A stretch of 64,000 nucleotides of DNA from contig OZ024743.1 in NCBI GenBank assembly GCA_964016885.1, forward strand, positions 116,436,001-116,500,000, given 5' to 3'. The stretch comes from Eledone cirrhosa (lineage: Eukaryota). The notes beneath the pieces were generated by a model. It worked only from the letters and a program-made list of their open reading frames with translations. It made no database searches and was not told the origin of the DNA. The position numbers and the translations under genes are program-made. This document shows positions 57,031-57,784 of this stretch, one piece after another. How positions within the stretch are numbered: position 1 is the first letter of the stretch; the number at the start of each line of letters is the position of its first letter.

Positions 57031-57784
57031 GGTTGATTATGCTAATTGGGAGAAGAAATGGTGTATATATATATCTTATCAAATGATTCAATGTACATAA
57101 ATTATAGTATATTGCTCTGATTATTTAATTTATTAATTCATCATTGAGCCACATCGTGAATGGTTGCCAAAAACATATATATCTATGACTTTGTCTAGTT
57201 TGTGTATATGTAAATCTTTATATTTGATAATCTCCCATAAGTTTGAGATGCAACGTAGGCAATATTAGGCTGCGCTTTCTAGCAAACAGCCCACTCGCAG
57301 TAAGGCACCAATCACATTATTTCTGACTTGACCACAGCCACGTCACAGTTCTTAGCCATTTTGAAATCGTTTCTGGCGGGGATCATTTAAGAAAAATCTT
57401 CGTCCAAGTGAGTTTGTTTCCTGATGAGTTCGAAGCTCGTGAATTTATCCTTGATCGGATATTTCCAAAAGCGAACGAAACCCTAAAGTGTAGAAACGTA
57501 ATCCTAGTATGTGTATATGTATTTTTTCTTCTAACTTTAATTTTATACCTAATTGTGTATGGTTGACGATATATTTAATCGATGTCCACGTGCCATTGAA
57601 ATGGTGGGTAAATATTCTATAGCTGTTCATCGCGAATAGATGGCTGTCATTTATTTATCTATTATTTCTTCATAGGTGCCTTTTAATCTTATAGCCTTGT
57701 TTAATTGTTTTTTTGTGTGGTTGATTTTGCTAATTGGGAGAGGAAATGGTGTATATATCTTATCAAATGATTCTATGGACATAA
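57031..57784 (+). mobile_element. ORF-less unit of about 688 bp with about 66-bp terminal direct repeats and a central HHR (retrozyme-like)
   Basis: ggttgatt.tgctaattgggaga..atcttatcaaatgattc.atg.acataa at 57031 and 57719. Long (TA)n on both sides. Confidence 0.78.
57416..57497 (+). ncRNA. Type I hammerhead with extended stem II
   Basis: gtttc-CTGATGA-gttcg..(39 nt including a tatcc/ggata hairpin)..cgaac-GAAAC-cctaaagt-GTA-gaaac. Confidence 0.8.

Follow-up and report, generated by a model that had tools for sequence, protein, structure and literature searches.

PLE insertions have a recognizable signature: they are truncated, form partial tandems, bear an inverted arm and, at one end, a tail, and have (TA)n as their target. 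The role of the hammerhead in these elements has been called unclear (PMC8557442). In Poseidon PAc of the green anole, two internal start sites, which bound the tail and are the same for both strands, were shown in vitro, where cleavage is unnecessary and no RNA ends map to the cleavage site (PMC11167929). That PLE enzymes copy retrozymes from circular templates is a proposal that goes back to 2014 (PMC4209133, PMC7229834), and metazoan non-LTR retrozymes have been described as units of 170-400 nt (PMC7229834) or, in an account that includes solo monomers and a PLE origin, of 51-972 bp (bioRxiv 10.64898/2026.07.22.740005). Plant LTR retrozymes carry a type III hammerhead in each LTR together with PBS/PPT and 4-bp duplications (PMC6765202).

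In the genome of Eledone cirrhosa (3.0 Gb), a 64,000-nt stretch of contig OZ024743.1, hereafter the window, contains an element that is a copy of a dispersed, non-coding family. The family has a unit of 684 nt with a predicted type I hammerhead and is probably a non-autonomous PLE passenger (non-LTR retrozyme), likely copied from cut and from circular RNA. The element behaves like a PLE insertion and is best filed under the metazoan non-LTR retrozymes, as the repeated unit is non-coding, has a type I hammerhead and shows no LTR design, with at least two ribozymes in tandem at the level of the family. It shares with these retrozymes the single type I hammerhead per unit, a GC content of 35%, head-to-tail copies and co-occurring PLEs (PMC7229834; bioRxiv 10.64898/2026.07.22.740005), whereas it is set apart by occurring mostly as dispersed insertions of 0.04-2.3 units and not as arrays, by a 39-nt loop II, by the absence of a discernible target-site duplication and by being known here from genomic copies. 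The initial annotation had presented it as larger than typical metazoan retrozymes, which is borne out against the range of 170-400 nt (PMC7229834) but not against that of 51-972 bp (bioRxiv 10.64898/2026.07.22.740005). Plant LTR retrozymes are alike in being non-autonomous, in their direct terminal repeats and in circles of 600-1000 nt (PMC6765202; bioRxiv 10.64898/2026.07.22.740005); identity with them was rejected, as identical LTR ends and a discernible target-site duplication are lacking, the hammerhead is of type I, not type III, and lies in mid-element, and the length of the repeat varies.

The element was first delimited at 57031-57784 and by homology with the family measures 763 nt, or about 1.1 units. 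It is preceded by a (TA)n tract (56965-57030), the target microsatellite at the 5' junction, and TA is found at the 5' junction in 49 of 73 un-inverted family insertions. The element itself lies on the plus strand and begins with a partial repeat (57031-57112; a pseudo-LTR), which according to the repeat comparison constitutes the extra 0.1 round and whose 5' end is one of many variable ends. The downstream repeat (57719-57795, plus strand) has its terminus at site A, the fixed 3' end of the family, the last ~10 nt being indistinguishable from (TA)n and the last diagnostic base lying at about 57784. Beyond it, a long (TA)n tract (57784-58102) forms the 3' junction, at which at least four AT units are present in 69 of 86 family insertions; both flanks are (TA)n as had been stated, but not purely so, owing to TTTT interruptions in the right tract. 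The direct terminal repeats are real and spaced 688 nt apart (two stretches in one comparison, of 41 nt at 95% and of 39 nt at 90%, and 71 nt at 88.7% in a second), but their length, given earlier as about 66 bp, has to be revised to about 78-82 nt, since by homology the repeat extends to site A. A credible ORF is absent, in agreement with the initial annotation: the window ORFs over the element comprise 42-61 aa or read through (TA)n, and those of the family unit reach at most 43 aa from an ATG. The window copy has a single ribozyme with a weakened stem III, and as its repeats exclude the ribozyme, release of a unit by double cleavage is impossible, hence this copy is probably a dead end, likely unable to make a new circle.

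Many hundreds of copies of the family are scattered through the genome. A similarity search yielded 5251 candidates, 40 of which were scored and gave 41 near-full-length matches at 91-100% identity, and with thousands of candidate copies the element is not 'solo', as it had been called. Copies deviate by ~3% from the 684-nt majority unit, the window copy at 26 of 762 positions. A 72% match beside locus L007 led not to an ORF but to two sister subfamilies, F2 (~81% alike) and F3 (~70%), in which the unit, its ribozyme and the size of loop II are preserved. A fourth, more distant subfamily of the large-loop unit was found in locus L200 (2674-2771), where it follows the 3' end of a PLE fragment as an insertion. 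Contigs from three sequencing runs, whose kind is not on record, showed only family variation, and a metagenome pattern scan gave 13 matches, none of them homologous.

The predicted hammerhead occupies 57416-57497 of the plus strand, and its letters agree with the full core, the 5-bp stems I and II and the 39-nt loop II attributed to it earlier. Stem I is formed by GTTTC (57416-57420) and GAAAC (57493-57497), the core by CTGATGA (57421-57427), GAAA (57477-57480) and the GTA that precedes the predicted cut at 57492/57493, and stem II by GTTCG (57428-57432) and CGAAC (57472-57476), which enclose loop II (57433-57471) with an inner hairpin. Stem III has the 4-bp form ACCC-TAAA-GGGT in the family and is weakened in the window copy by a T at 57489 in place of the family's G, which is part of the reason why the window stretch alone folds no better than shuffles (z -0.81; z -0.85). 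A typical copy (L014) folds into the exact three-way junction with a z of -2.51, and several family copies adopt other predicted folds. Across 48 aligned copies from three subfamilies, the core (CUGANGA, GAAA and NUH in a three-stem junction open at stem I) is invariant, and 90.7% of the cells are paired overall, with 99.6% in stem I, 90.4% in stem II and 96.1% in stem III. Stem I has three base pairs, and stem II two, that have changed on both sides (40 cells versus 10.7 in shuffled alignments), although these compensatory changes track the subfamilies and hence represent few independent events. In 17 of the 48 copies the basal pair of stem II is T.T, a U.U that also occurs in axolotl HHR_Amex2 (PMC7229834; bioRxiv 10.64898/2026.07.22.740005). 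Every subfamily has the inner hairpin of loop II, F3 in a shifted register. A reading of stem II as a Pol III B-box was dropped, as the T.T and F3 copies lose the B-box.

The alignment also hints, weakly, at a hypothetical pseudoknot that would join stems I and II, in which GAGT (57410-57413, plus strand) on the 5' side of stem I could pair with GCTC (57435-57438) in loop II; the four base pairs are 99% paired, one of them as U.G, C-G or U-A, a result equalled by 41-42 of 500 shuffles. Tertiary contacts of such a kind are common in hammerheads, and as in pseudoknotted hammerheads a short helix could connect the two stems in place of the usual loop contact, with the difference that it would here link the internal loop of an extended stem II to the strand 5' of stem I (PMC3088659). 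The hammerhead model search that had been recommended was negative, with no Rfam hammerhead at the gathering score in the window and none at E<=5 in four family loci; the hammerhead with a 39-nt loop II is a form overlooked by Rfam.

The 3' end of the family is fixed. Of 52 distinct loci selected independently of any junction pattern, 41 have their end precisely at site A, another 7 no more than 6 nt away from it, 1 at a further site B and 3 elsewhere, which speaks against free permutation of the copies and makes the terminal redundancy a partial tandem of the PLE type. Site A (…TTATAGTATAT; internal copy in the window element at 57101-57112, plus strand) is presumably the main start of reverse transcription, as genome-wide 631 copies pass exactly from A into (TA)n and 282 read through it. 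Site B (…AAATCTTTATAT; 57212-57223, plus strand) lies 111 nt beyond A, and end mapping of family copies delimits the 111-nt 'tail' between the two (57113-57223, plus strand); the B junction has 194 matches in the genome, and 28 of the 30 inspected are true ends. TATAT ends both A and B, and only these two of the nine TATAT words in the unit are used. For the 5' ends, a sample anchored at A was drawn from 90 of the first 100 listed junctions (91 rows, all on contig C1), which after removal of four non-anchoring rows and one duplicate comprised 86 insertions. These measure 24 to 1564 nt with a median of 428 (0.04-2.3 units): 29 are shorter than 303 nt, 4 end at 303-304 and 53 are longer than 304, including 26 that exceed one unit and 5 of more than 988 nt, which have room for two ribozymes; dimers and trimers occur in L003, L092 and L269. 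As the 5' ends vary, the element is not LTR-like, and the possibility of identical ends in all copies, which the initial annotation had named as a challenge to its own reading, did not materialize.

An inverted 5' arm is present in 13 of the 86 insertions and ends at B in 12 of these 13, so that B is mostly the end of the opposite arm; in the converse direction, 17 of 28 B ends have an opposite arm that ends at A, and no A-A or B-B two-armed insertion was encountered among the 86 A-anchored and 28 B-end insertions. The two arms have 206 of 212 alleles in common, and some inverted arms hold sequence that is missing from the main arm, hence the arms were separately templated. A target-site duplication was not discernible in 35 junctions. 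The family thus combines a fixed 3' end and optional tail with 5' truncation, partial tandems and an inverted 5' arm, as do the PLEs (PAc; Naiad/Neptune), with which it also has in common that the 3' ends are internal, that there are two start sites and a tail at one end, that the targets are AT-rich or (TA)n and that the hammerhead lies upstream of the start sites (PMC11167929, PMC8557442). In contrast to the PLEs described there, it has no ORF, its tail measures 111 nt instead of 30-40, and its putative start sites lie at TATAT words matching the target, while in contrast to PAc it pairs A and B on opposite arms and has 5' ends that mark the cleavage site (PMC11167929).

This last property is seen in the A-anchored sample, where four of the 86 insertions stop at 303-304 nt (0.24 expected), and in the genome as a whole, where the 18-mer directly after the predicted cut has 388 copies and 5' ends pile up at the base that matches 57493. 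A search pattern that excluded intact upstream sequence returned 42 rows, of which, judged by eye, 31 start at +1/+2 and 7 at -9 to -3, besides 3 ambiguous rows and 1 deletion (P about 1e-14), and a tighter pattern returned 37 rows with 25 starts at +1, 10 at +2 and 2 ambiguous. A T precedes 22 of the 25 starts at +1, as expected from an A added to a run-off cDNA. In all, ~10% of the copies that reach the predicted cleavage site begin exactly there, and this pile-up is the best indirect sign that the ribozyme has cut in the germ line. The peak is weak in F3 (28 rows), in which 3-5 ends at +1/+2 compare with 9 events at -14 to -3, many of them fold-backs, and in which stem III is a short palindrome; fold-back inversions centred on this palindromic stem III were observed in L276, L277 and other F3 copies. 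An unrelated hammerhead family, judged by eye, lacks the peak (about 10 of the first 100 rows out of 593), hence the mapping method does not itself create it. We found no report in the open-access literature of insertion 5' ends that map to a cleavage site.

Most insertions pass the cleavage site (53 of the 57 sampled ones that reach it), and their read-through junctions are ungapped in 127 of 134 cases and have no added base, GGTAT being absent from the junction words. When two rounds of one insertion were compared at 36 diagnostic sites (177 de-duplicated segments, among which one place, L198, is still repeated and one alignment, L073, is poor), 850 comparisons were concordant and 46 discordant, 16 of the latter being a poly-T alignment artefact, where independent rounds would give 381 differences, and minor variants were common to both rounds 149 times with 16 expected. 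Recurrent differences specific to one round were not detected (160 same-polarity versus 163 control pairs of 2016), and linkage is undiminished across the cut (mean r2 0.29 across it and 0.28 elsewhere). On this evidence a single unit read more than once fits best, although the sharing of alleles could alternatively derive from one young master active at a time. The circular family unit, whose folding had been put forward earlier as a check, is predicted to fold stably (z -3.0 in 40 shuffles, 63% paired). Exact stops at the cleavage site were also found in the second or third round (L187, L208, L190, L198, L016), which a closed circle in an RNA:DNA hybrid would not produce, hence linear multimers must contribute, and they may explain more than is allowed for here. 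Both templates, cut RNA and probably circles, would accordingly be in use as judged from these copies, and of the earlier proposal of about 1.1 rounds on a circle of about 688 nt, the length of 1.1 units and the repeated reading of the unit stand, but a pure circle does not, as the share of copies that start at the cut needs linear RNA.

The exact stops in rounds two and three would also suit a PLE passenger that has linear templates only and involves no circle, the templates being read-through RNAs, cut in part, that are transcribed from multimeric genomic copies or from a hidden tandem array, and the genomic dimers and trimers (L003, L092, L269) as well as the observation that unprocessed RNA is the main substrate in vitro (PMC11167929) point the same way. 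We nevertheless consider this unlikely, as copying from tandem DNA should transmit inherited differences between rounds, while the rounds agree at the level of mutation noise, and should shorten the copies with each generation. Two ribozymes fit into just 5 of 86 insertions. Nor is there a sign of a dominant array elsewhere, given that the matches listed (the first 100 places per search) are dispersed without a large array and that 60 of 282 read-through and 67 of 388 anchor matches fall on contig C1, which makes up 15% of the genome. Alternatively, the template could be a cut linear monomer, from whose 5' end the enzyme would, in nine cases out of ten, jump to a 3' end, either of that molecule or of a different one. 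R2 enzymes are known to jump from end to end, and such jumping predicts a constant chance of stopping per pass, as is seen; however, run-off ends carry an extra T while the read-through junctions carry none, and a drop of linkage across the cleavage site is not observed, which makes jumping improbable. A defunct hammerhead, with pausing of the reverse transcriptase at a structure as the source of the pile-up, might be argued for from the missing Rfam hit and from the copies that fold otherwise, but it is scarcely credible with an invariant core, with stems that covary across subfamilies 70-81% alike, and with a stop that coincides with the scissile bond, which lies five bases into stem I, and not with the first contact with the stem.

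The anatomy of the copies is that of PLE ends, and the genome is rich in PLE fragments, so the unit could also be thought of as the pLTR or UTR of a coding PLE, with all copies seen being 5'-truncated fragments. This is very improbable, since copies longer than one unit (26 of 86, dimers and trimers) run into the next unit and not into an ORF, and the unit itself has no ORF above 43 aa from an ATG; the initial annotation had singled out this same possibility as a potential refutation, and no ORF was attached to the unit in the inspected loci. As the unit has no RT/GIY-YIG ORF, it is not an autonomous PLE, and an autonomous PLE that shares sequence with it was found neither in the window nor in the inspected loci. 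Within the window, blast found no relative of the element, and a covariance model run on the window and 197 of 270 loci recovered only family members, the distant relative in L200 and weak matches to other hammerheads. A motif scan for PLE ORFs gave fragments, none joined to the unit, while Pfam did not recognise the GIY-YIG fragment of the window, and neither a text search nor inspection by eye of the cephalopod Naiad sequences in supplement S1 of PMC8557442 produced a match.

Other hammerhead elements surround the family. Next to the window element, at 58103-61300, inverted hammerhead arms (58201, minus; 61150, plus) flank a GIY-YIG fragment (59100-59768) in what is a two-armed PLE insertion, which has the (TA)n tract in common with the element at 57031 and related arms at 20352, 24422, 42524 and 45708. 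At 28207-29113 of the window, a 379-nt unit is present in 2.4 copies between TA tracts, with a weak hammerhead-model match at 29102-29165, and is probably another retrozyme-like partial tandem. At least 12 other type I hammerhead families occur in loci L001-L210 and the window, several of them with loop II hairpins of 25-50 nt (L139, L142, L170, L194), and Rfam reported none of the window's other hammerhead families at the gathering score. No sequence link was found between the element and these other families of the window, as had been asserted from the outset. A further, unrelated tandem retrozyme of 310 nt, in which the base of stem II is T.T and stem III is minimal and palindromic, was seen in L007 (341-960), L091, L213 and L219, where it forms young arrays 97-100% alike and in L007 is joined to an F2 fragment. 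In L236 (2735-2850), and in this one place only, four repeats of the 30 nt that adjoin site B in an F3 copy lie between runs of TA, which might reflect re-priming and stuttering by a telomerase-related enzyme. Supplement S1 of PMC8557442 lists eight Naiad elements as 'HHR_half_core', with core halves 35-50 nt apart. Among these there may be hammerheads of a large-loop or permuted form that descriptors built for short loops fail to detect.

In the cycle that we propose for the family, a source copy with at least two ribozymes would be transcribed, and the hammerhead would excise unit RNAs, part of which would be ligated into circles, while some multimers would stay partly uncut. A PLE protein would then nick (TA)n DNA and prime inside the RNA at site A, aided by the TATAT match, and a second cDNA would often be started from the other DNA strand at site B, giving rise to the inverted arm. 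The enzyme would run off the cut 5' end about once in ten times or cross the sealed junction for more than one round, and the window copy would be a 1.1-round product. A stronger version, to which we give about an even chance, holds that the insertion ends record the retrozyme cycle, that cut RNA and religated circles are real germ-line templates of PLEs, that the two target strands are primed at two different fixed sites 111 nt apart, and that the ribozyme is fast, monomer-competent and held by a pseudoknot via its 39-nt loop II. The family differs from described cases in its large-loop hammerhead missed by Rfam, in its long tail with paired sites A and B and in the evidence from end mapping. 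Its ends make the use of the ribozyme in PLE and retrozyme transposition directly testable. Insertion ends can be mapped at little cost, and in any other genome with retrozymes as well. For a reconstituted assay, the family offers a template along with two exactly placed start sites. If the stronger version is true, a large-loop form of the hammerhead has been missed by Rfam and by short-loop descriptors, and more such families may be hidden.
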